A stretch of DNA of 64,000 nt, from positions 8,339 through 72,338 of the forward strand of contig JAHLLH010000014.1 in the NCBI GenBank assembly GCA_020444265.1, read 5' to 3'. This DNA is from a bacterium (GTDB taxonomy: Bacteria > Electryoneota > Electryoneia > Electryoneales > Electryoneaceae). Position 1 is the stretch's first letter; each line of letters starts with the position of its first letter. The position numbers and the translations under genes were made by a program. Below the pieces are notes generated by a model. The model was not told where the DNA came from and searched no databases. It saw only the letters and a list, made by a program, of their open reading frames with translations. Of the stretch, positions 17,106 to 39,417 are shown one piece after another.

Positions 17106-17172
17106 AGTACCCCTGTTTAATCGCTGTCTACACAGACATTTTCTATCGGTACTACAGGTAAGGACTGTGTTT

Positions 17173-18399: not shown

Positions 18400-18410
18400 G
18401 GAGAAAAACG

Positions 18411-19985: not shown

Positions 19986-20014
19986 TCCAGCAACACACGT
20001 CGAAAGGAACCATC

Positions 20015-23000
20015 ATGTTAGATCGACTGATGCGGATCAGCCTGCGTAACCGACTCATTGTCCTGGTTGCTGCACTGGCGATCCTGATCGTTGGAACGCT
20101 CGTCACCTTAAACATGCCGGTGGATGTTTTCCCGGACTTGACAGCGCCTACGGTGACCATTCTGACCGAAGCACACGGAATGGCACCCGAGGAAGTGGAA
20201 AACCTGGTCACCTTCCCGATTGAGACTGTGGTCAACGGTGCTTCGGGAGTACGAAGGGTTCGGTCCAATTCCATCCAGGGACTCTCCACTGTTTGGGTGG
20301 AGTTTGACTGGGGGACAGACATCTATGTCGCCCGTCAGATCATCAACGAAAAACTGCAGATCATGCGGAACACTCTCCCCGGAGGGGTCGATCAGCCAGT
20401 TCTTGCGCCGATCACCTCGATCATGGGAGAAATTATGCTGGTCGGCCTGACCGCCGACACCACCTCCCCGATGGACCTCCGTACACTGGCGGAATTCACC
20501 GTGGGACGTCGGATTCAAGCGGTTCCCGGTGTTTCGCAGGTGCTGGTCTATGGCGGAGAAACCCGTCAGTACCAGGTTCTGGTTGATCCGTACAAGATCA
20601 CCGCTCGGGGGTTGACCTTAGATGAAGTTCTGGATGCGGTCCAGGAAGCAAACATTAACGCCACGGGTGGCCTGTTCATCTCCTCCGGGCAAGAATACCT
20701 GATTCGTGGTCTTGGACGGATCAACAACATCGCGGAGTTGAAGAAAACCGTCATCACCACCGAAGGCCATGTCCCGGTGCTGGTCGAGGATATCGCGGAT
20801 GTGGTGATTGGGCCTGCATTCCGTCTCGGGACAGCTTCGATTAACAACGAGAACGGCGTCCTACTGGTCATTGCGAAACAGCCCGAAGCGAACACTCTCA
20901 CTCTGACCGACAACATTCTGGAAACTCTTGATGGCCTTCGTGCATCGCTGCCCGTTGACATTTCCCTGCACACGGAGATTTTCCGGCAGTCGGATTTTAT
21001 TCAGACCGCCATTGACAATGTTCTGAGCGCATTGGGTGAGGGTGCGGTGCTGGTCACCATCATCCTTTTCCTCTTCCTGGTCAATGTCCGGACAACCGTT
21101 ATTTCCGTTCTTGCCATTCCCCTCTCGCTGGTCATTGCCTTCCTTTCACTGAAACTGCTGGGAATGTCGGTCAATACGATGACCCTCGGCGGCTTGGCGA
21201 TTGCGATTGGTGTCCTGGTAGATGACGCGATTATCTATGTGGAGAATGTCTACCGCCGCATCCGTCAGAATGCGGAAGTCCCGGAGGCGGATCGTCGTCC
21301 CTTCGTTGATGTTGTGGCCGATGCCTCCAGCGAAATCCGATCCCCGATCGCGATGGCAACCTTCATCGTAATCGTGGTCTTTATCCCTCTCTTTTTCCTG
21401 AGCGGGGTCGAAGGCCGGATGCTCAAGCCCCTCGGGTTTGCCTATGTAATCTCGATTCTCGCTTCGCTGCTGGTGGCAGTCACCGTAACCCCGGCGCTCA
21501 GCTCGTTTTTACTGCGGAACATCGATCAGAAGAAAGAGCATGGCGATAGCTGGTTCGTTCGACAGTTGAAAAAAGCCTACGAGCCGAGCCTTGTCTACTT
21601 CCTGAAGCACAAAGGGATCGTAATCGGTGTATCTGCTGCACTGGTGGTTCTTGCGATTAGCATCCTGCCTTTCTTCGGACGTTCTTTCCTGCCAGAGTTC
21701 AACGAGGGCACATTCAACATTTCTCTCGCCACCCTGCCGGGAACCTCACTCGAGGGATCACACGAGATTGGGGGGATGGTAGAGAGTATCCTCCTTTCAA
21801 ACGAGGCGGTGCTCTCAACCGCGAGGCGGACGGGACGTACCGAGTTGGATGAGCATTCGCTGGGTTCACACGCTCATGAACTTGAAGTGCAGGTCGATCT
21901 TAGCAACATCTCGAAACAGGAACTACTCGAGCAATTGCGATCTTCCCTCACAATGGTGCAGGGGACGAACATCACCATTGGTCAGCCGATTTCGCATCGG
22001 ATCGACCATATGCTTTCCGGGACACGTGCCGCTATCGCTGTAAAGCTCTTCGGACCTGACCTCTATTCGTTAAGGAGGTACGCTGAGCAGATCAGGCAGG
22101 AGATGGCCGAAGTGGAGGGCCTTGTCGACCTGTTTGTCGATCAGCAAACCGATGTCCCGCAGGTACGCATCACGGTGGACCGTGAACGGATGGCGATGTA
22201 CGGCCTTCGCTCTGCGGACTTGGACGAATTGATCGACGTAGCTTTCCTCGGTGCGAAAACATCCCAGGTGTATGAGGGCGATCACCGTTACGATCTGATC
22301 GTGCGGTACGCAGAGGATTACCGTGACGACCTCGAATCGATCCGGAACACCCTGATAGATGTTCCCACAGGCGGAGCGATTCCGCTGGAGATGGTGGCAA
22401 ATATCCGTGAAGACCGTGGCCCGAACTACATCAGCAGGGAGAACGTGCAACGGAAAATCGTTGTTCAGGCGAATGTGTCAGGACGGGACTTGCGGGGGGC
22501 GGTGGAAGAGATTCGGGAAAAGATCTCGACCAATCTCGATCTGCCACGTGGCTACCATGTCGAGTATGGCGGTCAGTTTGAGAGTGAGGAGCAGGCGACA
22601 CGGACCGTCTTACTGTTGAGCATCGTCTCGATTATCGCGATCCTCGTCGTCCTTTACCTCGAGTTCGGCAATTTCCGTCAGGCTTTCCTCGTCATGGTCA
22701 ACCTGCCCCTCGCCCTGATTGGAGGCATTGTCAGCATCTTCTTCACCGAGGGCATCATCTCCATCGCTTCCCTGGTCGGGTTCATCACCCTCTTCGGGAT
22801 AGCTGTGCGAAATGGGATCATGATGGTCTCCCATTACAATCACCTGATGAACCAGGAGGGGAAGACCCTGTACGAGGCGGTTGTGCAAGGCTCCATGGAA
22901 CGGCTGAGCCCGATCCTGATGACCGCGATGACCACCGGCCTCGCCCTGATTCCGCTTGCAATGGCTGCGGACAAACCGGGATCAGAACTGCAATCTCCCA

Positions 23001-23125
23001 TGGCTTTTGTCATCCTCGGCGGATTGCTTACTGCCACCTTCTTAAACCTCGCAGTCGTTCCCGCGATGTTCATGAAGTGGGGTGTCCAACCCGTGGATGA
23101 AGCAAAACACAAAGCGTATTTCTGA
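20015..23125 (+). CDS. CusA/CzcA-family heavy-metal efflux RND transporter
   Basis: 1036 aa with the heavy-metal-efflux RND architecture (two large periplasmic loops and the conserved GGLAIAIGVLVDDAIIYVEN motif). Confidence 0.9.
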   Translation: MLDRLMRISLRNRLIVLVAALAILIVGTLVTLNMPVDVFPDLTAPTVTILTEAHGMAPEEVENLVTFPIETVVNGASGVRRVRSNSIQGLSTVWVEFDWGTDIYVARQIINEKLQIMRNTLPGGVDQPVLAPITSIMGEIMLVGLTADTTSPMDLRTLAEFTVGRRIQAVPGVSQVLVYGGETRQYQVLVDPYKITARGLTLDEVLDAVQEANINATGGLFISSGQEYLIRGLGRINNIAELKKTVITTEGHVPVLVEDIADVVIGPAFRLGTASINNENGVLLVIAKQPEANTLTLTDNILETLDGLRASLPVDISLHTEIFRQSDFIQTAIDNVLSALGEGAVLVTIILFLFLVNVRTTVISVLAIPLSLVIAFLSLKLLGMSVNTMTLGGLAIAIGVLVDDAIIYVENVYRRIRQNAEVPEADRRPFVDVVADASSEIRSPIAMATFIVIVVFIPLFFLSGVEGRMLKPLGFAYVISILASLLVAVTVTPALSSFLLRNIDQKKEHGDSWFVRQLKKAYEPSLVYFLKHKGIVIGVSAALVVLAISILPFFGRSFLPEFNEGTFNISLATLPGTSLEGSHEIGGMVESILLSNEAVLSTARRTGRTELDEHSLGSHAHELEVQVDLSNISKQELLEQLRSSLTMVQGTNITIGQPISHRIDHMLSGTRAAIAVKLFGPDLYSLRRYAEQIRQEMAEVEGLVDLFVDQQTDVPQVRITVDRERMAMYGLRSADLDELIDVAFLGAKTSQVYEGDHRYDLIVRYAEDYRDDLESIRNTLIDVPTGGAIPLEMVANIREDRGPNYISRENVQRKIVVQANVSGRDLRGAVEEIREKISTNLDLPRGYHVEYGGQFESEEQATRTVLLLSIVSIIAILVVLYLEFGNFRQAFLVMVNLPLALIGGIVSIFFTEGIISIASLVGFITLFGIAVRNGIMMVSHYNHLMNQEGKTLYEAVVQGSMERLSPILMTAMTTGLALIPLAMAADKPGSELQSPMAFVILGGLLTATFLNLAVVPAMFMKWGVQPVDEAKHKAYF

Positions 23126-23237: not shown

Positions 23238-24104
23238 TTAGAAAATCCAGGTGTATCCAAAGAGGGCGGCGACCACGATGTGAATAGCCAGGATGATGAA
23301 CATGACGATGGCGAAGGGACGGTGGATGACATGCCAGTAGTGAAGGATTTTCTGGGAGACCTGGAGGAAACGCATCCGTCGCTTGAGAAGGGTTCGCCGA
23401 CGAACCAGGTCGATGATATCCTTGATTTCCTTATTGCCGAGCGAGGCGCGCTTTTTCAATTCACCCCGTAACCCGGACAACGCAAGACGCAGCCGAACAT
23501 CCTGCCCGATCCAAGTGAAGATAGCTGCGAAACCAGTCTTCCGTTTCGAGACCGGGACAACATCCTCGTGCAGCTTCTCAATCAGTTCCTCGTCCACCCC
23601 GTGCACATCGCGGATCTGCCCCATCAACTCGTCATCGAGTTGTTCGAGCTGCTCGCCGGACATTGCGGCACCGGAGAGGCTGCGTGGAATCTGCAAGTAG
23701 ACATAGCGCCCGAGGAACCCCGACAGGGCCACCGCGAGCATTGACCAGAAGGCAATGGCGACAATGCCGCCGAACTTGAAGGTGGTGTGGAAAATGACCA
23801 GGATCGGCCCGGTGATGCCCATCCAGATATGGACATCCAGCCAGTGACGCAGGTTGCCCCAATCCTGCATGAAACGGAAGTGTTTCCGTGCGATGTAAAG
23901 CAGCAGCATTGACATCAGGATCGCCCCGGCGATGCCGAGCGCGTGCCCGATAAATCCTCCCGCCTTCCAGTCGGTGTGCAGGTCACTGTGGGGACGTTCT
24001 GTCAACGGAAGAGAGTAGTAATCCCAGCCGTGGTAGAGAATCCAGGCTACAACGATGCCGGTCAGGGAATAGAGAAAGATCATCAGAAAGCGGTGGAAGC
24101 GCAT
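23238..24104 (-). CDS. polytopic membrane protein with two bis-His pairs at 14-residue spacing (ferric-reductase-like di-heme-b fold); putative
   Basis: DVHIWMGITGPILVIFH and WHVIHRPFAIVMFIILAIH sit within predicted transmembrane helices. This resembles the His spacing of the FRD, MsrQ and YedZ superfamily. Confidence 0.45.
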   Translation of the reverse strand: MRFHRFLMIFLYSLTGIVVAWILYHGWDYYSLPLTERPHSDLHTDWKAGGFIGHALGIAGAILMSMLLLYIARKHFRFMQDWGNLRHWLDVHIWMGITGPILVIFHTTFKFGGIVAIAFWSMLAVALSGFLGRYVYLQIPRSLSGAAMSGEQLEQLDDELMGQIRDVHGVDEELIEKLHEDVVPVSKRKTGFAAIFTWIGQDVRLRLALSGLRGELKKRASLGNKEIKDIIDLVRRRTLLKRRMRFLQVSQKILHYWHVIHRPFAIVMFIILAIHIVVAALFGYTWIF

Positions 24105-24254
24105 TGGGGAAGATGCCTTTCAACTGGTTTTTTTCACAGCCACTACAATAAGGTACCCCAGCTTGTCTTGCCAAGCCGGGATTTCGTTTTGGTAAAAAGA
24201 GACCCGGCTTGCAAGTCAAGCCGGGGCACCCAGATTATGACCTTCTGTTTCCAG

Positions 24255-25877
24255 CTAGAGCCGGTACCCCACCTCAAGGTAGACACGGTTCGAGGCGAGG
24301 TTGTCGCCTCGGTACGCCTCGCCATAGACCGAGGTGTACCACGACCTTGCGAGGGTCATGCTCGCGCCCAGCTTGGCAAAGGAGTAGGTCACCTTCCCAC
24401 CCGCAGAAAGGTCATACCGACTTTGCCCGACCTGACCGTTCAGATAGACCGTGCGGAAGAGGTACCGTGTGAGCTGGAGCGAGGGCTGCATACCTGTGCT
24501 GTACCGATTCTCGAAGGTGTTGATCTGTGCGGTGATCTTCACCCCGCTGCCGAGCAGGTCACGTTGGCTGATCCCACCCAGCAAGGTACGTGTGTCCTGG
24601 CTGTCCCCTTCGCGTAGACGAAGGCCAGCACGTGTGAACAAGCGCATCCCGAAGGGGAAGATATAGCTCGCTCCTGCACGGTACCCTTGACGCAAGGCAT
24701 CGTCGAAGAGGCTGTCAGGCGTGTCACGGGTCTCATAGGTACGCACCTGGGTACGATTGTCATAGCCGATGTCCAACGAGAGGTCGTCCACCGGACGCCA
24801 TCGTCCCGTCAGCAGCAGATTGCTCATGCCGAACGATTGCCCTTCGACATCCTTCCGCCAGCCTCGATAGACCTCAAGCTCGCCACTCTGGTAGAGGCTC
24901 CAGGTCCGTCCCCCGCTCAGTTGAAGCTGTTCGTAGAGGTATTCCTGGCTGATGGTGCCCGAGTTGTACCGTCCCGCAAAAGCGAGGGTCGCAGCAAGAC
25001 GTGTCGTCTCCCAGCTTCCTCGTTCGATGGCCGCATACACTCCGCCTTTGGTCTCATCGGTGCCAGGACGTGAGGTGCGGTAGTCCGGCTGGGTTCCGGC
25101 AAACAGGCCGTATGAGAAACGTTCCTGCTGCTGCATCTCGAAGTGAAGTCCGTCGATGGTGCCTATGCCTGCGAAACGATTAGAGAGAATCCTGCCAGCG
25201 TTGTAGTGCAGCGGAGAGGATGGATTGTCGTATCCGAAAGAGACCTCGTAAACACGGTTGAACCATTCGCTCTGGGTATCGGGCGAGAGATCGGATGCGC
25301 GCTGAACGCGTCGGCTGCGGAAACGGAGATTCAGGGTGTAGTAAGAGTTGAAGAGGTTTTCGGCGCGGAGACGGCCTGTCAGGGAGGGCTCTGTGACATC
25401 GTAATTGGTCGCTTCGAGGTCGTCCTGAATCATTACCTGAACGCCGAGTCGGCCTGAAAGGCGTGCACGAGGACGTTCCTGCTCAACGGTCCTCACAACC
25501 TGACGCTTTGTCCCTGTGGACGGGGTAACTGCGACAGAATCCTCTTCGGTGACTTCGGCCTCTTCCGGCATAACCTCGCCACTTGCGGCGACGGTTGCAC
25601 GATCCCCCACTTGCACCGGACCACCTTCGACCAGCTTGCAGACAGCAGTTGTCCCCGCAAGATAGGTTACCTCGAGGGTGGCGACAGTCGACCCTTCGCG
25701 CTCGATCTGGACCCTATCACCTACCGCAATGCCCTGATCGCTGCCAGCATCGAGGTAGATGCCCGAGGCGGAGACATATTTTACCGTTGTCGCCAGATCA
25801 CTCGCCAGGGCGCTTCCCAAGCCACCCAGCAGTCCAATCAGCAAAACCAGCCAACCTGCTCTGAGAAAAACCTTCAT
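24255..25877 (-). CDS. outer-membrane beta-barrel protein (porin-like component of the cytochrome operon)
   Basis: Signal peptide, then 540 aa with an alternating hydrophobic and aromatic beta-strand pattern, rich in G, Y, R and T. Last gene of the multiheme cytochrome operon, 4 bp after MHC3. Confidence 0.65.
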   Translation of the reverse strand: MKVFLRAGWLVLLIGLLGGLGSALASDLATTVKYVSASGIYLDAGSDQGIAVGDRVQIEREGSTVATLEVTYLAGTTAVCKLVEGGPVQVGDRATVAASGEVMPEEAEVTEEDSVAVTPSTGTKRQVVRTVEQERPRARLSGRLGVQVMIQDDLEATNYDVTEPSLTGRLRAENLFNSYYTLNLRFRSRRVQRASDLSPDTQSEWFNRVYEVSFGYDNPSSPLHYNAGRILSNRFAGIGTIDGLHFEMQQQERFSYGLFAGTQPDYRTSRPGTDETKGGVYAAIERGSWETTRLAATLAFAGRYNSGTISQEYLYEQLQLSGGRTWSLYQSGELEVYRGWRKDVEGQSFGMSNLLLTGRWRPVDDLSLDIGYDNRTQVRTYETRDTPDSLFDDALRQGYRAGASYIFPFGMRLFTRAGLRLREGDSQDTRTLLGGISQRDLLGSGVKITAQINTFENRYSTGMQPSLQLTRYLFRTVYLNGQVGQSRYDLSAGGKVTYSFAKLGASMTLARSWYTSVYGEAYRGDNLASNRVYLEVGYRL

Positions 25878-25881
25878 CAGC

Positions 25882-27411
25882 TCACCGTTCTTTCGGGCTG
25901 TCTATGCGGGCGGGATGCAGGAGACGATCATCCTCGGCCCGTCCATCGGGATGGCAATCATAACAGGCGGCGCTGTCGTAGACATACCCCCCCACATCAT
26001 CGTGCTCATCGTTCATCTCGGACTGACTGTGCTCATGACATGAGATGCAGGTAAACACCTGGTAGTTGCTCGTATTCGGGTGACATTCGGAGCAACTGGC
26101 CCACTCGTTGCGATGTTCTCCCGAGTAGATCGGGAACCACTGGGAATCGTGGTTGAAGTTCGCATTGTCCCAGGAAATCGTATTGTGGCAGCTGTCGCAA
26201 TCCTGCGGGAAGCCCGCGGCAGCATGGTCTGGGTCCGTGGTGGTATTGTAGTCCGCCTCGTGACAAAAGAAGCAGTCCGAAGGGGTGTTGACATACCCCG
26301 CTGTATGGCAGAGGCTGCAATCGAGACCAACATGAGCCCCCGTCAGGGGAAAGTCGGTCTGCGAATGGTCAAAATCGGCATCGTCCCAGGTGACTGTCGA
26401 GTGGCATAATACACAATCAAGCGGGAAGTTTTCCTGCACATGATCGGGATCGGTCGTCCCCTCGAAATCGGCTTGGTGGCAAGCATAACACTCGGATGGT
26501 GTGCCAGTGTAACCAGATGCATGGCATTGGAGACAATCGAGGGGCTGGTGTGCACCAGTCAGCGGAAACGCAGTGTCGTGGTGATCAAAGACGATTCGAT
26601 CCCAACCGAGCGCCGTATGGCAGAGGACACAATCGGTTGGATACTGATCAGCAACATGGTTCGGGTCAGTCGTGCCCTCATAATCCGCCTGGTGACAGGC
26701 ATAGCAGGCGGAGCTACCGATGGTGTAGTCTCCGCCGGTATGGCACTCGACACAGACCAGCAGCGCATGCTGACCAACCAGCGGAAAACCTGTCCGGCCA
26801 TGGTCGAAGATCGACTCTTCCCACTTCTGCACCCCATGACAGCTGCTGCAATCGGCATCGAATCCTGCTTGCACATGGTTGGGGTTGGTGGTCGCCCGGT
26901 AGCTATCCCAGTGGCAGGTCTGGCACGTCGTCGAGAGGGCACGATACTGCCCGGAGGCATGGCACGCCTGGCAGTCCAGCGGCGCATGGACCCCGACCAA
27001 CGGGAACCGTGTCTCCTGGTGCATCAGGCGGAAACGGGACTCATCACTCCAGCCCAAAGGTGAATGGCACTCCTCGCAGGATCGTCCGAATTCGCCACGA
27101 TGGATGTCGGTGTGGCAGGCCGCGCAGTTCGTTGAAACGTCCAGAAAAACAGGATCCGTGTGACACAAGGCGCAGGCGACACCCTTGTGAAATCCTTCTA
27201 ACGGGTAGTTGGTGTCCCTGTCATGGTCGAAGCGCAGCACGGGCAGAAGCTGGTCCCATCCCTCGGTGCCATGGCAGGCGCTGCACTCGAGCTCCATATC
27301 GCCGTGTGGGTTGGTCCCGGTCTGCAACGGCGTGGCGTCAGCAACTCCGACCAGCAGCCCCAACATCAGCACGACGAGGGGGGATCGTCTTGATGTCAAC
27401 AATCGTTTCAT
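25882..27411 (-). CDS. multiheme c-type cytochrome, about 19 CxxCH motifs (MHC3; paralog of the C-terminal part of MHC2)
   Basis: Signal peptide. I counted 19 CxxCH motifs. The C-terminal ~110 aa are nearly identical to the MHC2 C-terminus (...SDCFFCHE.DYN...QWFPIYSGEHRNEW.SCSECHPN...FTCISCHEH...ACYDCHPDGRAEDDRLL). Confidence 0.9.
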   Translation of the reverse strand: MKRLLTSRRSPLVVLMLGLLVGVADATPLQTGTNPHGDMELECSACHGTEGWDQLLPVLRFDHDRDTNYPLEGFHKGVACALCHTDPVFLDVSTNCAACHTDIHRGEFGRSCEECHSPLGWSDESRFRLMHQETRFPLVGVHAPLDCQACHASGQYRALSTTCQTCHWDSYRATTNPNHVQAGFDADCSSCHGVQKWEESIFDHGRTGFPLVGQHALLVCVECHTGGDYTIGSSACYACHQADYEGTTDPNHVADQYPTDCVLCHTALGWDRIVFDHHDTAFPLTGAHQPLDCLQCHASGYTGTPSECYACHQADFEGTTDPDHVQENFPLDCVLCHSTVTWDDADFDHSQTDFPLTGAHVGLDCSLCHTAGYVNTPSDCFFCHEADYNTTTDPDHAAAGFPQDCDSCHNTISWDNANFNHDSQWFPIYSGEHRNEWASCSECHPNTSNYQVFTCISCHEHSQSEMNDEHDDVGGYVYDSAACYDCHPDGRAEDDRLLHPARIDSPKER

Positions 27412-27444
27412 CGGGTTTCGATGTTCATCCGAATCATCTCTCGT

Positions 27445-30327
27445 TTACCGTTCTTTCGGGCTGTTTATTCGCGGGTGTTTCAGCAGACGATCATCCTCGG
27501 CACGTCCATCCGGGTGGCAGTCATAGCAGGCGCTGCTCTCGTAGATATACCCACCCACATCATCATGCTCGTCATCCATGTCATTCTGGTTGTGCTCGTG
27601 GCAGGAGATGCAGGTGAAGACCAGGTAGTTGTCCGGGTTCGGATGGCACTCGGAACAGCTGTCCCACTCGTTGCGATGTTCCCCGGAATAGATCGGGAAC
27701 CACTGCGCATCGTGGTTGAAATTTGCATCATCCCAGGTCACCGTATTATGGCAACTTTCGCAGGTCTGCGGGAACCCGGCAGACTGATGGTTCGGATCGT
27801 CGGCACCATTGTAGTCATCTTCATGACAGAAGAAGCAGTCTGAAGGCGTATTGGTGTAACCTTGGGAATGACAAAGGTTGCAGTCGAGACCATTGTGCGA
27901 TCCGGTCAACGGCCAGCCCGTGTCGCTATGATCAAACAGTGGCGCACTCCAATCAGCCGTGGTATGGCATTCGGTGCAAACCTGCCCGAAGCCGGCATCG
28001 CTATGGTTCGGGTCGGAAACCCCGTTGTAATCCTCCTCATGGCACGACCAGCAATCAGAGGGGGTGCCGGAAAAACCATCAGCATGGCAAAGATTGCAGT
28101 CAATGGAGGTGTGCGCCCCGGTCAATGGCCAGCCGGTATCACCGTGATCAAACAACGGTGCGTTCCAGTCAGCGGTGGTGTGGCACTCGGTACAATCTTG
28201 TCCGAAGCCGGCATCGCTGTGGTTCGGGTCGGCCACCCCGCTGTAGTCCTCTTCATGGCATGACCAGCAATCTGATGGAGTACCACTGAACATGGTTGCA
28301 TGACAGAGGTTGCAATCGAGTGACGTGTGCGCTCCGGTCAACGGCCATTCAGTGTAGCTGGCATGGTCGAAGTCGTCCGCATCCCAATCCTCTGTCGTGT
28401 GGCACTCGGTGCAGTCGTGTGGGTAGTTCAGCGCCACATGATCCGGATCGTCCGTGCCCTCATAATCCGCCTGGTGGCAGGACCAGCAGTCAGTCGGTGT
28501 GCCGACATAACCATCCGAATGACACAAACTGCAATCGAGAGTACGGTGGGCACCGGTCAACGGGAAATCGGTCTGATCATGGTCGAAGGTGGACTCATCC
28601 CAATCGCTCGTATTGTGGCAGATCGAGCAGTCGGTCGGGAACCCTTCTGCGACATGGTTCGGGTCGTCCGTGCCCTCGTAATCCGCCTGGTGGCAGGCGT
28701 AGCAGTCTGTCGGTGTGCCGGCATAGACACCACCGATGTGACAGAGTGCGCAATCGACATTACGGTGTTCGCCCGTCAAGGGGAAGTTGGTCTGGTCGTG
28801 ATCGAAATCCGCCCCTTCCCAAGTGATCGTCGTGTGACAGAGTGTGCAGTCCATCGGGTAGTTCTGCACCTCGTGGTCCGGATCCTCCGTTCCACGATAA
28901 TCTTCCTCATGGCACGACCAGCAATCATCCGGCGTGTCGGCATAGACCCCTTCAACATGACAGAGGTTGCAGTCGACATTGATGTGCTCACCGGTCAACG
29001 AATAATTGGTCTGGGCATCATGGTTGAAATTCGAGGGGGTCCACTCCGCCGTGGTGTGGCAGAGCGTGCAGTCGAGATCGAAGCTGTCCGGGTTGTGAAT
29101 CGGATCCTCGACCTCGGTGTAATCCGCCTCATGGCAGGAATAGCAATCATATGCGGTACCGTTGAACCCCTCCGCATGACAATCCGCGCACCCCAGTTCC
29201 AGATGGGCACCGTCGATGGTAAAATTGGTTTCGCTATGGTCGAAATCGGCGGGGGTATACGCCATTGTTGTATGGCACATTGTGCAGTCGAAATCGAACG
29301 CACCGTCCACATGGTTCGGGTCGTCCACACTCTCGTAGTCTTCACGGTGACAGCCAACACACTGGTCCGGGGTGCCGGTGTACTGGGCTTCGTGGCAGAG
29401 AGCACAATCGAGCGTCGTATGGGCACCGTCCAAGGGGAAACTGGTCAGGTCATGGTTGACGAAATCCGCCGGGGTCCAGGCGATGGTCGTGTGGCAGAGC
29501 TGGCACATCGTATTGAAGGCCGGACCGCTATGGTCCGGGTCAACTGTTCCTGCGAAGTCAGTATGATGGCAGGCATCGCACTCGTTGGAAACTTCGGTGT
29601 ACGCCTGACCAGCCACATGGCAGAGGGCGCAATCGCGGACAGCATGCCCGCCGGTCAACGGAAAGCTTTGGGTGTGGACAAACTGCACATCCGGGCCACC
29701 CCAATCGCCTCCGCCATCACCGCCAGCCTGGGTGACCCCATGACACTCGCTGCAATCGGTCGGAAAACCAGCCGCTGAATGGTCGGGATCGGTAGTGGAC
29801 TGGTAGGTATCGAGGTGGCAGGTGATGCACTCGGTGGAGAGGTCGCGGTACTCGCCGGACGCATGGCACGCCTGGCAATCGAGACCGGCATGGACCCCGA
29901 CCAGTGGGAACCGTGTCTCCTGGTGCATCTGACGGAACATCGGTTCATCCTGCCAATTCTGCGGCGAATGGCACTGATCGCAGGAGTTCCCGAACTGCCC
30001 CTCGTGGATGTCCGTATGGCAGGAAAAGCAGTCGGTGTCAGCATCACGGAAGACAAGACTCGTGTGGCAGGAGGAGCAGGCTACTTGCCCGTGCTGTCCT
30101 TCGAGCGGGTAACGGGTGTCGGCATCGTGGTTGAACAGGAGGACCGGTAGCAGACGATCCCATCCTTCGGTGCCATGGCAGTCATTGCAAGCCAAATCGA
30201 TCGGACCGTGCGGATTGTCCCCGTTCTGGGTAAACCCGGCAAGGGCCGATGAACCGATTGTCAGCAGGATCAGGCCCGCTAGCAGGACCACGGAGAATGT
30301 TCGCTGCAAAGTCACGTGTCTCATCAT
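27445..30327 (-). CDS. giant multiheme c-type cytochrome, about 37 CxxCH motifs, with internal near-identical tandem repeats (MHC2)
   Basis: I counted 37 CxxCH motifs. A repeating unit of roughly 60 aa (DC.LCH...GTP.DCWSCHEEDY.G..DPNHSDAGFGQ.CTECHTTADW.APLFDH.DTGWPLTG.H) occurs several times. I take the start at MMRHV (30327), which leaves a 28-nt gap to MHC1. Confidence 0.9.
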   Translation of the reverse strand: MMRHVTLQRTFSVVLLAGLILLTIGSSALAGFTQNGDNPHGPIDLACNDCHGTEGWDRLLPVLLFNHDADTRYPLEGQHGQVACSSCHTSLVFRDADTDCFSCHTDIHEGQFGNSCDQCHSPQNWQDEPMFRQMHQETRFPLVGVHAGLDCQACHASGEYRDLSTECITCHLDTYQSTTDPDHSAAGFPTDCSECHGVTQAGGDGGGDWGGPDVQFVHTQSFPLTGGHAVRDCALCHVAGQAYTEVSNECDACHHTDFAGTVDPDHSGPAFNTMCQLCHTTIAWTPADFVNHDLTSFPLDGAHTTLDCALCHEAQYTGTPDQCVGCHREDYESVDDPNHVDGAFDFDCTMCHTTMAYTPADFDHSETNFTIDGAHLELGCADCHAEGFNGTAYDCYSCHEADYTEVEDPIHNPDSFDLDCTLCHTTAEWTPSNFNHDAQTNYSLTGEHINVDCNLCHVEGVYADTPDDCWSCHEEDYRGTEDPDHEVQNYPMDCTLCHTTITWEGADFDHDQTNFPLTGEHRNVDCALCHIGGVYAGTPTDCYACHQADYEGTDDPNHVAEGFPTDCSICHNTSDWDESTFDHDQTDFPLTGAHRTLDCSLCHSDGYVGTPTDCWSCHQADYEGTDDPDHVALNYPHDCTECHTTEDWDADDFDHASYTEWPLTGAHTSLDCNLCHATMFSGTPSDCWSCHEEDYSGVADPNHSDAGFGQDCTECHTTADWNAPLFDHGDTGWPLTGAHTSIDCNLCHADGFSGTPSDCWSCHEEDYNGVSDPNHSDAGFGQVCTECHTTADWSAPLFDHSDTGWPLTGSHNGLDCNLCHSQGYTNTPSDCFFCHEDDYNGADDPNHQSAGFPQTCESCHNTVTWDDANFNHDAQWFPIYSGEHRNEWDSCSECHPNPDNYLVFTCISCHEHNQNDMDDEHDDVGGYIYESSACYDCHPDGRAEDDRLLKHPRINSPKER

Positions 30328-30355
30328 CTTCCCCTTTCCACACTGGGTAAACCAT

Positions 30356-32092
30356 TTACCCGCGTGTCCCCTCCATCTGCGGAACCGTGCTGCCATGGCA
30401 ATCGGAACACTCCATGCCGAGCGGCTTGTAGATCACCATCTCGCTGCCATCGCTTCGCATCACCGGCTTATGGCACTGGTTGCACTCCACCTTGATGTGA
30501 GCACCATCGAGTTGGAATCGGCTATCCCGGTTGTGCACAAATTCCAGCTCCTTCCAGCCCGCAGGCTGGTGGCAACGATCACAGGTGGTCTCGGTTTCGC
30601 CTTGGTCCATTCGTACAAACTGATCGCCGTGGATGTTGTCATGACAGCCGGCGCAGGTCATCTCAAGCGGTTTCATCCAGACAACCTGTTCCCCTTCCTG
30701 CTCAATGGTGTGGCATTCGAGGCAGAGGATTTCGCGGTGCTGTCCTTCGAGCGGGAATCGTGCCAGACTGTGGTCAAAGCTGGTACGATGCCAGGTATCT
30801 GTCGAGTGGCAGTACTCGCAGCCGTTCTTATCGACCCAGATGTTGAGCTGGCCCTGGTGGATGTCCTCATGGCATGCCTGGCAGGTCGTCATCTCCCAGG
30901 CAAACTGGGCATAGCTGCCATCGTCATCCTCCATCACCTGCGCATGGCAGAGGTTGCAGGGAACGGCAAAATGGCTGCCGGTCAGGGGATAGTCCGATTG
31001 CTGGTGCTGCTCAAAGCCATAATCGGCCGGGATGAAGCCCTCTACTGTGTGGCAGCTTTCGCACGCACCACCATCACTGCGCCCAGCGAACTGCCCGCGA
31101 TGTTCATCGTCGTGGCAATCGGTGCACCCGGCGAACTTGAGCGGATCGGTCATCACACCCGTTGTGTGGCACTCCTTGCAGTCAACATCGATATGTTTTC
31201 CACGCAGGGGATAAGTCGTCTTGTCGTGATCAAACTGCTCGTCCTTGACTTGTTGGAAGCTCGCGGTCGTGTGACATTTGGTACAGTTGGCCCCGAAACG
31301 GCCCTCGTGCTTGTCCTCATGACAGTTGACGCAGCTTGAGTACTCGAGGCCCTGGTAGTGCGAATATTGGCCGACATGCTCGGCTTTCTGGAGCAGGTTC
31401 GAATTGACCGCTGGAGCTTCCTGCCAGGGGTGGCATTTTTCGCAGGAGACATCGGTGTGCTTGCCGTCCAAACGGTACTTCGCATCGTCGTGGTTAAACC
31501 CGGATGCCGGGGTCCAGCCCTCCATCGTGTGGCAGGTAAGGCAATCATCGGTGAGTTGATTACGGTGTTCATCGACATGGCAGGTGACACACGCTTTGTC
31601 CAGGCCGAGGTGGGTACGATCCTTGTCGATGCTGTCATCGTTCCCGAAACGATCCGCCTGCTGGAACCGTGCCACATGACAATCGGCACAATCTTCTTCC
31701 GCATGCTTGCCTTCGAGGGGATACCCGGTCAGGGTGTGGTCAAAGTTGTCCTGTCCCTCTGTCCAGAAAATGAGCTCGTAATCCCGTCCGTGATGTTCCG
31801 AGTGGCACGATGCGCAGGTTTTATCCGTGACCTCAGCGGAAGCATGGTAGCCGCTGCCCTCATCCATCCGGGTTTGGATGGCAGTATGGCAGACAAGACA
31901 CTTCTCGTTGGTCACCGCCTCACCCAGCTGGTGGCAGTTGGTGCAGTTGCGGATCCCTTCCAGCTCTTCATGATAGCCGGACAGCTTACCGGGAGAAATC
32001 TGGGCCAGTGATGGCACCGCCCAAAGCAGCATTAATGCCACAATGGACATGCTTCGTGTCCAGCACCCAGTACCCTGCCGCATGTTCTTCAT
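30356..32092 (-). CDS. multiheme c-type cytochrome, about 20 CxxCH motifs (MHC1)
   Basis: Signal peptide MKNMRQGTGCWTRSMSIVALMLLWAVPSLAQ. I counted 20 CxxCH motifs. Confidence 0.9.
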   Translation of the reverse strand: MKNMRQGTGCWTRSMSIVALMLLWAVPSLAQISPGKLSGYHEELEGIRNCTNCHQLGEAVTNEKCLVCHTAIQTRMDEGSGYHASAEVTDKTCASCHSEHHGRDYELIFWTEGQDNFDHTLTGYPLEGKHAEEDCADCHVARFQQADRFGNDDSIDKDRTHLGLDKACVTCHVDEHRNQLTDDCLTCHTMEGWTPASGFNHDDAKYRLDGKHTDVSCEKCHPWQEAPAVNSNLLQKAEHVGQYSHYQGLEYSSCVNCHEDKHEGRFGANCTKCHTTASFQQVKDEQFDHDKTTYPLRGKHIDVDCKECHTTGVMTDPLKFAGCTDCHDDEHRGQFAGRSDGGACESCHTVEGFIPADYGFEQHQQSDYPLTGSHFAVPCNLCHAQVMEDDDGSYAQFAWEMTTCQACHEDIHQGQLNIWVDKNGCEYCHSTDTWHRTSFDHSLARFPLEGQHREILCLECHTIEQEGEQVVWMKPLEMTCAGCHDNIHGDQFVRMDQGETETTCDRCHQPAGWKELEFVHNRDSRFQLDGAHIKVECNQCHKPVMRSDGSEMVIYKPLGMECSDCHGSTVPQMEGTRG

Positions 32093-32122
32093 GGTCCTTC
32101 TACCCCCTGCTGCCCAGTTCGG

Positions 32123-33436
32123 TCAAGATTCCCCGAATTTCCGTGTGAACTGCACGCCAACTCGCTCCAGAAACGCCGTCGGCAACTCCCCACCCGCGAA
32201 GATGAAAACCTGGTCATTGGGCAGTGTCACTGTCTCGCCAGCCTTGTCGAGGATGACTGCATCATCGAGGATTTCTTTCACCTCGGACAGCAAAATGAGT
32301 TCGATCTTGCCAGACTCTACCGCCTTGTCGAGACGATCTTTGTTGCCTTCTTTGATACGGAAAATGCGGTCACGGCGGTAGGAAAGATGGACCGTGTTGC
32401 CCTCTACATCGCTCAGGGCTACCGCCGCTTCCACTGCGCTGTCACCTCCACCGACCACGAGAATGTTTAGGTCGTGGTACTTCTCCGGATTCAGCATCCG
32501 GTAAGCGACCTTTGAAGCTTTTTCCCCCGGGCAGCCCAGTTTACGCGGGCTGCCGCGACGTCCAATCGCGAGCAGCACACGTTTTGCCTCGAACGTCTCG
32601 CCTTGCGCTGTGGTCACTGTGAAATGACCATTCGTTTTCTCGACCGTTTCCACCTTCTGTCCGGCATGCACCTTTAAATCGGCCACGCTGAAGATTTCGC
32701 TGAAGAGCTCCAGCAGTTTTTCTTTTTGCACTTCACGCAGTTTCAGTTTGCCGTAGATCGGCAAATCAACAGGTCGTGTCATCACCAGCTTACGTCGCGG
32801 ATAGGTGAGGACTGTTCCGCCCAGATCTTCCTGATCGACAATCGCAAAGTTTATCTTCTCGGTCCGTGCCGCCAACGCCGCACCCAACCCCGCTGGTCCT
32901 GCACCGACAATCACCAGGTCGAGCACTTTCTCCGCTCGTTTCTTCTCGTCTAGGCTCTTCGCGATGAACTGCGCCGCCTGGATGCCCTGGGTCATCGCAT
33001 TGCGAATCAACCCCATTCCACCCAGTTCACCAGCAATGTAGACTCCAGCCACATTCGTTTCGAATGTGCCCTTCAAGTGAGGGATGTCCACCCCTCGTTT
33101 TTCCGTGCCAAAGACGAGGGAAATTGCCTCTACCGGACAGGCGGCATGGCACATCCCATGGCCGATGCAGCGTGATGGATTGATCAAAGCACCGCGGTTG
33201 TTGATCAGGCCGAGCACATCCTGTTCAGGACAGGCACGGACACAAGCGCCGGAACCAATGCAGGTGTTGGGGTCAATCACGGGATGGAGGGAGACCGGTT
33301 CATCGAGGCCGAGTTCGATGGCCTTCTTCAGGGTGGTGGCCGCTTTCTCACTTTTGCGACGTTCCCGCAGCCAGTAGAGTGCGGGCACAAGAATGGTCAG
33401 CAAACCGACAACGACATAGATTAACACCTCGAGCAC
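32123..33436 (-). CDS. membrane-anchored fusion of a 2x[4Fe-4S] ferredoxin and an FAD/NAD(P)-binding oxidoreductase
   Basis: N-terminal transmembrane helix, two 4Fe-4S motifs (CIGSGACVRACP and CIGHGMCHAACP), then pyridine-nucleotide-disulfide-oxidoreductase Rossmann motifs (VIVGAGPAGLGAA and ILVVGGGDSAVEAA). First gene of the cytochrome operon. Confidence 0.8.
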   Translation of the reverse strand: MLEVLIYVVVGLLTILVPALYWLRERRKSEKAATTLKKAIELGLDEPVSLHPVIDPNTCIGSGACVRACPEQDVLGLINNRGALINPSRCIGHGMCHAACPVEAISLVFGTEKRGVDIPHLKGTFETNVAGVYIAGELGGMGLIRNAMTQGIQAAQFIAKSLDEKKRAEKVLDLVIVGAGPAGLGAALAARTEKINFAIVDQEDLGGTVLTYPRRKLVMTRPVDLPIYGKLKLREVQKEKLLELFSEIFSVADLKVHAGQKVETVEKTNGHFTVTTAQGETFEAKRVLLAIGRRGSPRKLGCPGEKASKVAYRMLNPEKYHDLNILVVGGGDSAVEAAVALSDVEGNTVHLSYRRDRIFRIKEGNKDRLDKAVESGKIELILLSEVKEILDDAVILDKAGETVTLPNDQVFIFAGGELPTAFLERVGVQFTRKFGES

Positions 33437-33745: not shown

Positions 33746-36700
33746 TCATCTTGGATCAACCTTCATCCTTGATTCGAGTCGTCCCTCGAACCACTTGTAG
33801 AAGGCTGGTAGCACGAGCAGGGTCAGCAAGGTCGAGGTAACGAGGCCACCGACAACGACGGTCGCCAGGGGACGCTGCACCTCGCTACCGGTACCAGTCG
33901 CGAAGAGCAACGGGGTCAGGCCGAGGGCAGTGGTGACAGCGGTCATCAGCACGGCACGCATTCTAAGCATGGCGGCCTTGACCGACGCCTCGTCCAGCGC
34001 AATACCTTCCTTTCGTAACCCGTTCAGGGTGCTCAGCAGGACCATGCCGTTCTCGAGCGCTATCCCGAACAGGGCGATAAACCCTACCGATGAAGGCACC
34101 GACAGGTTCTGCCCGCTGATCCACAGCGCAAGAATGCCACCCACAAGTGCAAGGGGAATATTGAGCAAAATCAGCAGGGTGTTTTTCAGCGAATTGAAGC
34201 TTGTGTAAAGAAGCAGCGTAATGAGCAGCAGGGTAATCGGTACTACCACAGCAAGCCGTTTGTTGGCCTCCTGCTGCAAACGGAACTGCCCACCCCAAGT
34301 CACCAGGTAGCCAGCAGGCAAATCAACCTCCCTGGCGATCACCTGCTCTGCTTCAGCGACGAACGACCCGATGTCACGTTCTTCGACATTACACTGGATC
34401 GAGATGAAGCGTTGGTTGTCCTCACGTGTAATCTGTCGTGGGCCAGTAATGGTCTGGACATCCGCAAGCTGATCCAACGGCACCAGCAATCCGTCCGGAG
34501 TTGGTACAAGGATCGAACGAATCGCCTCTGGTGTACTACGTGCCTCCTCACGGTAGCGAACGACGATGTCGAAGCGACGAATCCCTTCGAAAATCTGACC
34601 CGCTTCCTCGCCGCCAACCGCCGCCGCAACCACTTCCTGGACATCTGCGATTGGAACACCGTAGCGAGCAATCGCTTCACGGTCAATTTGTACAAGTAAC
34701 TGAGGGGTGCCGCTAATCTGATCGACCTGGACATCACGAGCGCCGGGTACGGTTTGCAGCGCAAGGGCAATCTCATCAGCAGATGCTTTCAGCTGATCAA
34801 GATCATCGCCAAATAGTTTCACGGCCAGTTCTGCCTTCACCCCTTCCAGCAACTCATCGATGGTGGCCGCAATGGGCTGTGTGAAGCTGACGCGAGTCCC
34901 TGGGACATTACCAAGATCACCACGGATCAGGTCGACCAACTCCGGCTGGCTGCTTACACGCCACGTCGATTCATCGCTCAGCAACACGTACATTTCGACA
35001 CTGTTAACCGGATCGGTATGAGCGCCAACTTCCCCTCGTCCAATCCGGCTGACCACCTCTTCGACTTCGGGAATATCCATCAGGCGACGTTCCACAATCA
35101 TCGCCATCCGTTTGCTCTCCTCCAGCGCGATGGAGGGCGCCAGGGTGAGCCGGATCAGGAGGGTGCCCTCCTGAAGCTGAGGAGTAAACTCACTGCCGAG
35201 CTGGGTTACCCCAACACCACCCGTCAGCAACAGCACCACCACCAGCAGTACGGCCAGGCTTCGTCGTGAGATGAACTTTCGCAGCAGTGGTTCATAGAGT
35301 CGATTGAGCCCATTGATCATCTTCGACGAAACGGATCTGTCCCTTGAGCGATATCGTCTCCTCATCAACAAACTCGCCAGCACTGGCACCGCAACAATTG
35401 CATAGACTAACGATCCCGCCATCGCATAACCGATAGTCCAGGCCAGTGGACGGAACGTCTTCCCTTCCACGCCCTGCAAAGTCATGATCGGCGAGAAGAC
35501 AACGAGAATAATCAGGATCGAAAAGGTGACGGGACGCAGCACTTCGCCTGCGGCATCGAGGACAATTTGCCTGCGGTCCCCCATTCCCGAACTCTGCTGC
35601 AAACGTCGGTCAATGTTCTCGACCAGCACGACGGCACCATCGACCATCATCCCGATAGCAATCGCCAGTCCACCGAGCGACATCAGGTTGGCGGAAATAC
35701 CGGTTTGACGCATCAGCAGGAAAGCAAACAGCACGGAGAAAGGGATCGAGAGTGCAACGACAAGGCTGGGACGCCATCCGCCCATGAAGAGCAGGATGAC
35801 TAGAATGACAAGGACAACGCCTTGGCCCAGGGCGGAAAGAACGGTTGATACCGCAGCATCGACCAGACTTTTCTGGTCGTAATAGGGAACGATCCGGACC
35901 CCTTCTGGTAGAATCGTGTTGACCTCGTCCAGCTTCTTCTCAACTCGTTCAATCACAGACGAGGTGTTGCTTCCAAATAGTTTGATCACCTGCCCTGCAA
36001 CCACCTCTTCCACACCATTGTGGGTCTGGAGGCCACGACGTATCGCGCCACCTTCACGCACGTTGGCGATGTCATGAAGGTGGATCGGCACACCATCCAC
36101 CGACTTGACCACAACTCGATTCAGGTCATCAATACTTTTGGCCAAGCCAACTGAGCGGACGATATACTCTTCCGCGTTCTCCTCGACAAACTGCGCGCCG
36201 GTGTTGAGGTTGTTGGCTTTCAACGCCTCCACCACCTCGTGCAGACGGATGCCATACCTCAGCAGGGATGCGGGATCCACCACCACCTGGAATTGCTTCT
36301 CCCAGCCACCGATTCCAAGTACTTCGGTAACACCTGGTACGGTCTGGAGGTGGTACTTGATCAACCAATCCTGGATGCTGCGCAGCTCGGTCAGGGAACG
36401 TGTTCCGGTGGTATCCTCGAGGTAGTAGAAGAGGACGAGGCCCATTCCGGTCGAGATCGGTCCCATCTCCGGGTCACCAAAGCCTTCCGGGATCTGGTCA
36501 CGCGCCTCCTGCAAGCGTTCGTTGACCAATTGCCGTGCGAAGTAGATGTCCACGTCATCCTCGAAGTAGACATTCACCACCGACAGCCCGAAGTTGGAAA
36601 CCGAACGTACTTTTGTCAGGCCCGGCAAGCCGTTCATCACCGTTTCAACTGGATAGGTGATGTAGGTTTCCACCTCTTCCGGCGCCAATCCCTCGGTGAC

Positions 36701-36853
36701 GGTAAATACTTGCACCAGGTTGGGCGAGACATCCGGGAAGGCATCAACAGGCAGATCTCGGTAGGCTATCCAGCCCGCTCCCATGGTCAGCAGAAACAGC
36801 ACCACCACAAGCAGACGACCGGAGAGAGCGGATCGTACAATTCGATTCAGCAT
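33746..36853 (-). CDS. CusA/CzcA-family heavy-metal efflux RND transporter (second, paralogous copy)
   Basis: 1035 aa, same architecture and motifs as 20015..23125 (GGLAIAIGMMVDGAVVLVEN). Confidence 0.9.
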   Translation of the reverse strand: MLNRIVRSALSGRLLVVVLFLLTMGAGWIAYRDLPVDAFPDVSPNLVQVFTVTEGLAPEEVETYITYPVETVMNGLPGLTKVRSVSNFGLSVVNVYFEDDVDIYFARQLVNERLQEARDQIPEGFGDPEMGPISTGMGLVLFYYLEDTTGTRSLTELRSIQDWLIKYHLQTVPGVTEVLGIGGWEKQFQVVVDPASLLRYGIRLHEVVEALKANNLNTGAQFVEENAEEYIVRSVGLAKSIDDLNRVVVKSVDGVPIHLHDIANVREGGAIRRGLQTHNGVEEVVAGQVIKLFGSNTSSVIERVEKKLDEVNTILPEGVRIVPYYDQKSLVDAAVSTVLSALGQGVVLVILVILLFMGGWRPSLVVALSIPFSVLFAFLLMRQTGISANLMSLGGLAIAIGMMVDGAVVLVENIDRRLQQSSGMGDRRQIVLDAAGEVLRPVTFSILIILVVFSPIMTLQGVEGKTFRPLAWTIGYAMAGSLVYAIVAVPVLASLLMRRRYRSRDRSVSSKMINGLNRLYEPLLRKFISRRSLAVLLVVVLLLTGGVGVTQLGSEFTPQLQEGTLLIRLTLAPSIALEESKRMAMIVERRLMDIPEVEEVVSRIGRGEVGAHTDPVNSVEMYVLLSDESTWRVSSQPELVDLIRGDLGNVPGTRVSFTQPIAATIDELLEGVKAELAVKLFGDDLDQLKASADEIALALQTVPGARDVQVDQISGTPQLLVQIDREAIARYGVPIADVQEVVAAAVGGEEAGQIFEGIRRFDIVVRYREEARSTPEAIRSILVPTPDGLLVPLDQLADVQTITGPRQITREDNQRFISIQCNVEERDIGSFVAEAEQVIAREVDLPAGYLVTWGGQFRLQQEANKRLAVVVPITLLLITLLLYTSFNSLKNTLLILLNIPLALVGGILALWISGQNLSVPSSVGFIALFGIALENGMVLLSTLNGLRKEGIALDEASVKAAMLRMRAVLMTAVTTALGLTPLLFATGTGSEVQRPLATVVVGGLVTSTLLTLLVLPAFYKWFEGRLESRMKVDPR

Positions 36854-36862
36854 ACTCCCTCC

Positions 36863-39324: not shown

Positions 39325-39417
39325 GATATACAACCTCTGTTCACCGACAGAGATTTCCCATCGGTGGATGTTCACGTAAACCGTTTAAAGTCAATTTGAA
39401 TAAAGGAGGAGCTGAGA

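Follow-up and report, generated by a model that had tools for sequence, protein, structure and literature searches.

A modular 37-haem cytochrome in a porin-cytochrome-like operon and its family of length-variable relatives

Long multihaem cytochromes serve as the wires of mineral respiration, of electrode biofilms and of interspecies electron transfer, and to our knowledge almost all knowledge of them comes from Geobacter and Shewanella. In the poly-c7 cytochromes of Geobacter (GSU1996, GSU0592 and GSU2210 type), three-haem modules of ~70-80 amino acids (aa) are concatenated in one chain; an origin by module duplication has been proposed for these nanowire cytochromes (PMC11492766), and the cytochrome repertoires of Geobacter are duplication-rich and fast-evolving (PMC12977616). 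In the MtrCAB conduit of Shewanella, the OmaB/OmbB/OmcB (Pcc) conduit of Geobacter and MtoAB/PioAB, multihaem cytochromes are clustered with an outer-membrane beta-barrel. Two further reports describe multihaem cytochromes with 33-53 haems beside porin genes in Ignavibacteria, Bacteroidetes, Burkholderiales and Chloroflexi, link them to extracellular electron transfer, note that haem number differs between close relatives, and interpret the proteins either as wires at the molecular scale or as charge capacitors (Arbour et al. 2020, PMC7399161; He et al. 2019, PMC6344600). Here we analyse MHC2, a secreted c-type cytochrome of 960 aa with 37 CXXCH haem-binding motifs, encoded on the minus strand at 27445..30327 of a 64,000-nucleotide (nt) stretch of contig JAHLLH010000014.1 (positions 8,339 to 72,338; hereafter the window), together with the operon that contains it.

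MHC2 lies in a run of six co-directional genes (23238-33436, all on the minus strand, intergenic gaps of 4-150 nt) for an FeS-flavoprotein, the cytochrome MHC1, MHC2, the cytochrome MHC3, a predicted outer-membrane beta-barrel protein and a 288-aa membrane protein. No open reading frame (ORF) within the window other than MHC1-3 carried two or more CXXCH motifs. From the gene content, we estimate with a probability of roughly 70% that the operon encodes a porin-cytochrome-type trans-envelope electron conduit in which MHC2 would be the length-variable modular wire.

The MHC2 ORF runs from 27445 to 30396; the supported start is at 30327, the N-termini of its orthologs aligning to a start at MMRHV. 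The 960-aa sequence is that of NCBI MCB2200999.1 (KQI63_16500), and an identical record exists in Logan. Motif counts in the ORFs, 37 in MHC2 and 19 in MHC3, and the coordinates of both genes agreed with an earlier note on this DNA. The CXXCH motifs of MHC2 are spaced in a regular 32/15/25 series, and the internal periodicity that had been proposed for the gene was confirmed. The top self-similarity lag was 216 nt, followed by 1092, 435, 657 and 219 nt; Tandem Repeats Finder reported a period of 216 at 27868-28347 (2.2 copies, 76% matches), and a repeat search found families at 216-222 nt spacing with 60-87% identity over 20-77 nt. The unit had been put at ~60 aa or 180 bp; its actual length is 72-73 aa, equal to 216-219 bp, and each unit contains three CXXCH motifs.

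A signal peptide (aa 1-31; 30235-30327, minus strand), read from the hydrophobic core and an ALA-G site, opens the MHC2 chain; by eye, the Sec signal N-termini of the cytochromes read MMRHVTLQRTFSVVLLAGLILLTIGSSALA/G and MKRLLTSRRSPLVVLMLGLLVGVADA/T. Next comes an N-terminal three-haem module (aa 47-115; 29983..30189, minus strand), which is a degenerate first unit, and then ten tandem three-haem units of 72-83 aa each (aa 116-855; 27763..29982, minus strand). The chain ends in a four-haem module (aa 856-960; 27448..27762, minus strand) that consists of a unit plus one extra terminal haem and carries the signature of its family, FPIYSGEHRNEW...CHPDG. The sum 3 + 10x3 + 4 gives 37 haems, or 12x3+1, and the 19 haems of MHC3 equal 6x3+1. 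When units were cut at every third CXXCH (ten in MHC2 and four in MHC3), the 14-unit alignment showed the invariant positions C1, C4, H5, H17, G26, H28, C33, C36, H37, C49, C52, H53, P63 and H65. Each unit therefore has three CXXCH motifs and three invariant distal histidines (H17, H28 and H65), in addition to G26 and P63; since this makes six histidines for three haems in every unit, bis-His ligation of all haems is indicated. There was no conserved methionine in the alignment. The total histidine content, 80 in MHC2 (74 are needed for 37 haems) and 41 in MHC3 for its 19 motifs, was in keeping with these numbers. The Pfam family Cytochrome_C7 (PF14522) matched MHC2 in five stretches at 125.1 bits (cutoff 24.8), and Cytochrom_CIII matched at 87 bits, well above its cutoff. 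By motif and histidine content, MHC2 is classed as a bis-His, class III-like multihaem c-type cytochrome.

Two further properties of the MHC2 sequence were recorded. A Thr-Pro-Ser/Thr motif stands directly before the third CXXCH in six of the units (aa 430, 538, 610, 683, 755 and 827; consensus GTPxDCxxCH). The same short motif is called haematite-binding in outer-membrane cytochromes; in MHC2 it could equally be structural. In addition, acidity is extreme in both MHC2 and MHC3, and lysine is nearly absent: MHC2 has 172 Asp and Glu against 20 Lys and Arg, only two of these being Lys, and its net charge comes to about -152. The remaining proteins of the operon are close to neutral, and the median charge of the wire family is -2 per 100 aa; judged from these compositions, extreme acidity is a trait of the lineage formed by the window and its two close relatives described below, not of the family.

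In architecture, MHC2 comes closest to the poly-c7 cytochromes of the GSU1996 type. The TIGR04257 triheme model did not match MHC2 and scored MHC3 at 26.9 bits against a cutoff of 40. Comparison of the unit profile with the Protein Data Bank (PDB) gave PpcA at E 0.14-0.8, and hhalign against PpcA gave a probability of 27%. Ligands and motifs follow the order HH-C-C-H-C in the MHC2 unit, compared to HH-C-H-C-C in PpcA. Haem IV in each domain of GSU1996 is His-Met ligated, whereas the MHC2 units would all be His/His, without a conserved methionine. On motif order and profile scores, the MHC2 unit falls outside the canonical c7 domains. The MHC2 family also differs from poly-c7 in having more modules (12 here, up to ~31) and in its barrel-containing operon.

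Relatives of MHC2 are numerous. A search of 5.8 billion proteins gave more than 2,700 at E <= 1e-10, with lengths of 813-1,679 aa among the best 120 listed, and a profile of the C-terminal module matched 1,510 cluster-50 representatives, the longest one listed being 2,321 aa. Patterns back-translated from the C-terminal module marked 203 candidate stretches in 185,579 GTDB species genomes; an earlier scan of species-genome contigs with the barrel alignment had found no relative. Locus comparisons were carried out on 77 loci among these stretches, all from metagenome-assembled genomes (MAGs). By record title, almost all are Bacteroidota, Ignavibacteriota or Calditrichia, with single records under Delongbacteria, Alphaproteobacteria or an unclassified bacterium. 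The C-terminal module was 58-90% identical among six aligned sequences and 51-68% identical in the 77 loci (best tblastn segment). Most of the loci hold the same gene set as the window, namely the membrane protein, the FeS-flavoprotein, a ~20-haem cytochrome, one or more variable wires and the barrel, and the wire gene is almost always directly upstream of the barrel gene.

Haem number in this family is quantised. The 56 complete wire genes recovered from the genome loci encode between 19 and 94 haems, and 53 of them follow a 3n+1 rule (19, 22, 25, 28, 31, 34, 37, 40, 43, 46, 49, 55, 58, 61, 64, 70, 79, 91 and 94), the exceptions having 32, 32 and 39. A pair of units at least 90% identical in nt was present in 17 of the 56 genes, and four genes contained units that were 100% identical. 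The window is not among the extremes, its best-unit nt identity of 0.72-0.77 lying at the family median of 0.76. In the accessible text of the two reports on porin-linked cytochromes (PMC7399161 and PMC6344600), a three-haem unit, a 3n+1 rule, end modules and flavoprotein or cytochrome-b partners are not described. The searchable literature on Ignavibacteria, Bacteroidota, Calditrichota, Melioribacter and DUF4405 with multihaem proteins consisted of general multihaem and porin-cytochrome reports and contained no description of this family. The Pcc cluster of I. album (Shi et al. 2014) is not this cluster; its periplasmic cytochrome has 14 haems.

Close relatives of the window were found in Logan ERR15087788 (L001, the closest one) and JGI 3300027690 (L002). 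The gene set is complete in L001, with orthologs 80-94% identical in aa and 79-85% in nt; L002, at 63-85% aa identity, has the operon minus MHC3. The L001 ortholog of MHC2 is collinear but shorter by exactly one 72-aa unit, which leaves it with 34 haems; the difference falls at the chimeric junction of unit 9 described below. Both relatives have a single copy at the site of the youngest duplication in the window. L002 has reached 37 haems by a different route, an independent duplication of its units 6 and 7 (90% nt identity). The proposal of a rapidly evolving wire of variable length therefore held for the variability, which is evident in the family (19-94 haems) and in the unit missing from L001, and failed for the recency claimed for this locus. 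Unit comparisons point to gain and loss of units as a recurrent process in the family, of which the window shows an old state.

Several other features of the relatives were noted. The giant wires of L054, L060, L061 and L062 (39-91 haems) contain 100% nt-identical units, and copy number in those assemblies is at real risk. The C-terminal-type module marked by FPIYSG recurs inside some homologs (P0065, P0084 and others), with a period of 222 aa in P0065, and a match to the C-terminal module stood mid-ORF in several loci (among L003, L014, L016 and L061); these internal modules suggest higher-order repeats or the end-to-end fusion of two wires. In several loci, extra short wire genes with 10-13 haems separate the long wire from the barrel gene.

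The units of MHC2 had been described as near-identical; instead, the 14 units were mostly 35-60% identical in aa and 52-77% in nt, typically about 60% in nt, and the best pair in unit register reached 82% aa and 72% nt. The example that had been offered, 28080-28180 compared with 28200-28290, was a 16-nt chance match, and in register (+216) the identity was 54%. The youngest duplication in MHC2 (27901..28332, minus strand) consists of two 216-nt copies, copy 1 at 28117-28332 (aa 666-737) and copy 2 at 27901-28116 (aa 738-809), which were 89% aa and 77% nt identical in the true duplication register. Because this duplication is offset from the unit boundaries, unit 9 is a chimera of the N-terminal part of unit 10 and the C-terminal part of unit 8, a structure that would be expected from unequal crossing-over. 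Identity at the third codon position of the pair was 0.49, compared to 0.50 expected for identical amino acids under MHC2 codon usage, and thus the synonymous sites are saturated. The third-position identity between the window and its L001 orthologs was higher, at 0.60. Across unit pairs, the proportion of synonymous differences (pS, Nei-Gojobori) was 0.53-0.88. The longest exact direct repeat in 25882-30396 was 24 nt.

These data bear on whether the duplications are recent, with a locus that evolves fast in this strain and is prone to collapse and recombination, as the earlier note had proposed. The origin of MHC2 by intragenic duplication of a haem-binding unit is supported; the periodicity is real, one pair of units is 82-89% identical in aa, and other members of the family carry units that are 90-100% identical. 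A recent date is nevertheless very unlikely and is refuted for this genome by the synonymous saturation; the conservation of MHC3 in L001 at 87% and an N-terminal module of MHC3 that falls outside those of all MHC2 orthologs also speak against it. Since no exact repeat exceeds 24 nt, assembly collapse and efficient homologous recombination are unrealistic here, and the hazard to assembly that had been raised does not apply. That the array itself is an assembly artefact, its copy number collapsed or expanded, has in its favour that the source is a MAG and that units in certain other MAGs are 100% identical and could suffer such errors. We regard this as extremely improbable: in addition to the shortness of the exact repeats, the reading frame is intact, the motif series is perfectly regular with a 3n+1 count, the same 960-aa product is on record from NCBI and from Logan, and the L001 and L002 orthologs are collinear except for one clean unit. 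For annotation, the lesson is that a cytochrome can be visibly periodic without having been duplicated recently; in this gene the periodicity is kept in the protein, with synonymous sites at saturation.

MHC3 (25882..27411, minus strand; 509 aa, 19 CXXCH; NCBI MCB2200998.1) is a paralog of MHC2, as had been proposed, with N- and C-terminal modules in common and four units instead of ten. Its recency was not borne out. The last ~110 aa of the two proteins had been called nearly identical; the C-terminal 105 aa were 81% identical in both aa and nt, with ~1.2 synonymous substitutions per synonymous site (dS). The N-termini were 66% identical over 161 aa and 67% over the first six haems, in contrast to 81.5-93.6% for the N-terminal module among MHC2 orthologs. 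L001 has an ortholog of MHC3 and L002 has none, and the 81% identity of the C-terminal modules of MHC2 and MHC3 is about that between the MHC2 proteins of the window and L002 (80%). From the L001 ortholog and these module identities, MHC3 is older than the split between the window and L001 and approximately as old as the split from L002. Recent gene conversion between the C-termini of MHC2 and MHC3 was considered and rejected, since paralog identities within and between genomes were equal (81-83%).

The other cytochrome of the operon, MHC1 (30356..32092, minus strand; 578 aa, 20 CXXCH), belongs to a type that has 20 haems in almost all loci (18 and 19 in two) and ~530-550 aa, and that is encoded upstream of the variable gene in nearly all loci. 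The C-terminal half of MHC1 showed a weak resemblance to MtrC and to MtrA/DmsE: it matched the Pfam family Mtrc-MtrF_II-IV_dom (MtrC domains II/IV) at 45 bits, above the cutoff of 30, and its match to the decahaem model TIGR03508 (DmsE/MtrA) spanned profile positions 3-254 of 258, a resemblance and not membership of that family.

The barrel protein (24255..25877, minus strand; 540 aa) matched no Pfam family, and its fold was predicted by AlphaFold2 and Foldseek. From a 51-sequence alignment, AlphaFold2 gave a model with a predicted local distance difference test score (pLDDT) of 85.4, in which a signal helix, a small beta domain (aa 27-97) and a disordered linker (aa 99-131) precede 22 strands (aa 139-539). 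Foldseek returned only outer-membrane barrels for this model (ushers, chitoporin, the Occ family and AlgE), at template modelling scores of 0.2-0.45. The N-terminal beta domain sits on a linker of ~30 aa that is rich in Glu, Pro and Thr, and weak FlgT_C matches to it were present in 16 of 51 homologs; this domain may serve as a plug or for docking in the periplasm.

The FeS-flavoprotein (32123..33436, minus strand; 437 aa; Pfam Pyr_redox_3 at 1e-41 and Fer4_10 at 7e-12) is membrane-anchored: basic residues come after its N-terminal transmembrane (TM) helix, and an export signal is absent. The protein has two ferredoxin-type motifs and a TrxR-like FAD/NAD(P) Pyr_redox domain, with conserved Cys/His and GxGxxG, and in most loci its gene adjoins that of MHC1, at 44-54% identity. 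The second Cys is replaced in both ferredoxin-type motifs, which read C59-x2-S-x2-C65-x3-C69-P and C90-x2-H93-x2-C96-x3-C100-P, and this is conserved in 60 loci; the replacements suggest 3Fe-4S clusters or unusual ligands.

The last gene of the operon (23238..24104, minus strand) encodes the 288-aa membrane protein, which may be a b-type cytochrome with two haems, of DUF4405 or ferric-reductase-like type. It lies downstream of the barrel gene here, and in most other loci upstream of the flavoprotein gene. All Pfam matches were below cutoff (DUF4405 23.4/26.7 bits, Ni_hydr_CYTB 17.6/30.1, Ferric_reduct 13/28). Two TM helices each carry a pair of histidines at a distance of 14 residues, H92/H106 and H261/H275, and these were at least 90% conserved in 55 loci; H54 and H258 were also conserved in these loci, and a charged loop of ~100 aa separates TM4 from TM5. 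The His pairs are a putative di-haem b signature, shared, with the weak matches to three families of the clan, with the di-haem b proteins DUF4405, MsrQ and ferric reductase. Binding of haem b by DUF4405 has been demonstrated experimentally (PMC11334425). The protein differs from di-haem b proteins of this kind in that its partners are multihaem c cytochromes instead of flavinylated proteins, and in its TM4-TM5 loop, which would be cytoplasmic.

As in the Mtr, Pcc and MtoAB/PioAB systems, multihaem cytochromes are thus encoded beside an outer-membrane beta-barrel, and there are clear differences. The barrel here has 22 predicted strands and an N-terminal beta domain on a disordered linker, in contrast to the Mtr and Pcc barrels. 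Its cytochromes have 20 and 19-94 haems, compared to 8-12 in Mtr and Pcc, and the inner-membrane module pairs the FeS-flavoprotein with a di-haem-b-like protein, where Mtr and Pcc use a quinol dehydrogenase (CymA/ImcH/CbcL). Unlike porin-cytochrome conduits, the cluster has no lipoprotein outer cytochrome. Going by profile comparisons, the cluster resembles a porin-cytochrome conduit yet lies outside the Mtr and Pcc families.

In the proposed conduit, MHC2 would be exported by the Sec system as a chain of 12 three-haem modules and one terminal haem. A reductant in the cytoplasm, probably NAD(P)H, would supply electrons to FAD and then to the FeS clusters of the flavoprotein; from there they would cross the inner membrane through the b haems of the 288-aa protein to MHC1, and pass from MHC1 along the closely packed haems of MHC2 and MHC3 through or onto the barrel, with which the cytochromes may form a physical complex. 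The final acceptor would be external (a metal oxide, humics or a partner cell), and the direction of flow could be reversed. Wire length would change by one 72-aa three-haem module at a time through unequal recombination between units, the last such event here being ancient.

Several results weigh against this conduit. No lipoprotein box, C-terminal domain of the type IX secretion system (T9SS) or other surface-export signal was identifiable in MHC2, and searches of PDB chains with MHC2, the three-haem unit profile and MHC1 returned no significant sequence relative. The TIGR03508 cutoff of 192 was reached by neither MHC1 (45.3 bits) nor MHC2 (39.8 bits). Homology of the barrel to MtrB/PioB was not detected: MtrB was not in the Foldseek top 50, and Pfam MtrB_PioB (PF11854) matched 0 of 51 members. 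AlphaFold2 modelling of the C-terminal third of MHC2 (aa 639-960), from a 32-sequence in-register alignment, gave a pLDDT of 57 and a predicted template modelling score (pTM) of 0.29, and Foldseek found no match to this model in the PDB; the low confidence is probably due to the absence of haems from the model. The rod-like geometry of MHC2 is assumed by analogy with GSU1996. Finally, an NAD(P)H-fed, quinone-independent input, as would follow from the gene neighbourhood alone, is unusual for known conduits.

Other placements of the cytochromes and directions of flow were weighed. MHC2 and MHC3 may be periplasmic, where their role would be to store electrons as a capacitor or to relay them across the periplasm, and the barrel would pass only a shorter cytochrome or a soluble shuttle. 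The presence in MHC2 of a Sec signal only, with no recognisable surface-export or lipid-anchor signal, agrees with such a location, electron storage has been proposed for long multihaem cytochromes (PMC7399161 and PMC11492766), and an approximately five-fold range of length (19-94 haems) fits capacity as well as distance. Against it, the wire gene almost always adjoins the barrel gene and the C-terminal module is the most conserved part of the wire across phyla, which suggests a fixed docking partner; moreover, by analogy with GSU1996, an extended rod of 37 to 94 haems would exceed the width of the periplasm. On this evidence a periplasmic location appears rather unlikely. Inward operation, in which Fe(II) outside the cell, a cathode or a syntrophic partner would donate the electrons as in MtoAB/PioAB, appears less likely still. 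The architecture is symmetric, conduits of the Mtr type are known to operate either way, and the acidic surface of MHC2 would attract cations such as Fe2+. The extreme acidity is, however, specific to one lineage, and flow towards a cytoplasmic NAD(P)-type flavoprotein would be uphill from most extracellular donors; in addition, the literature ties the host clades to reduction of Fe(III) or of anodes (PMC7399161).

Outside the operon, two complete three-component resistance-nodulation-division (RND) efflux systems of the CusA/CzcA type flank it, at 17062-23125 (plus strand) and 33746-39375 (minus strand). Each comprises OEP, an HlyD_D23-type adaptor and an ACR_tran pump, and L001 also has an upstream RND system. 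A functional link between the operon and RND metal efflux was considered and rejected, since these flanks are not conserved in L002 or in most other loci. A 431-aa ORF at 14886-16181 (minus strand) had a weak match to a T9SS sorting domain (Por_Secre_tail, E 0.026), which is consistent with a host of the Fibrobacterota-Chlorobiota-Bacteroidota (FCB) group, and a clear Por_Secre_tail protein is encoded near the L002 operon. Judged from its neighbours, the host would be a Calditrichota-like member of this group.

MHC2 is a modular multihaem wire in a porin-cytochrome-like operon, and the wider interest lies in its family. The locus is a well-preserved example of a widespread, uncharacterised family whose carrier clades are abundant in sediments, sludge and anode biofilms and have no model system. 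A natural series of lengths, built from one module and reaching from 19 to 94 haems, offers a ready-made experiment on electron transport as a function of wire length, and the family also has a possibly quinone-independent input module. We put forward only tentatively, and as a doubtful proposition at present, that these operons are an undescribed, self-contained conduit of Bacteroidota, Ignavibacteriota and Calditrichota, in which an NAD(P)H-type FeS-flavoprotein would feed a di-haem b protein and so bypass the quinone pool, and in which the outermost component would be a single-polypeptide wire with a length set by evolution in three-haem quanta over that range. If this is true, the length of the wire would be heritable and adaptive, suited to the distance or to the capacity that each species needs.

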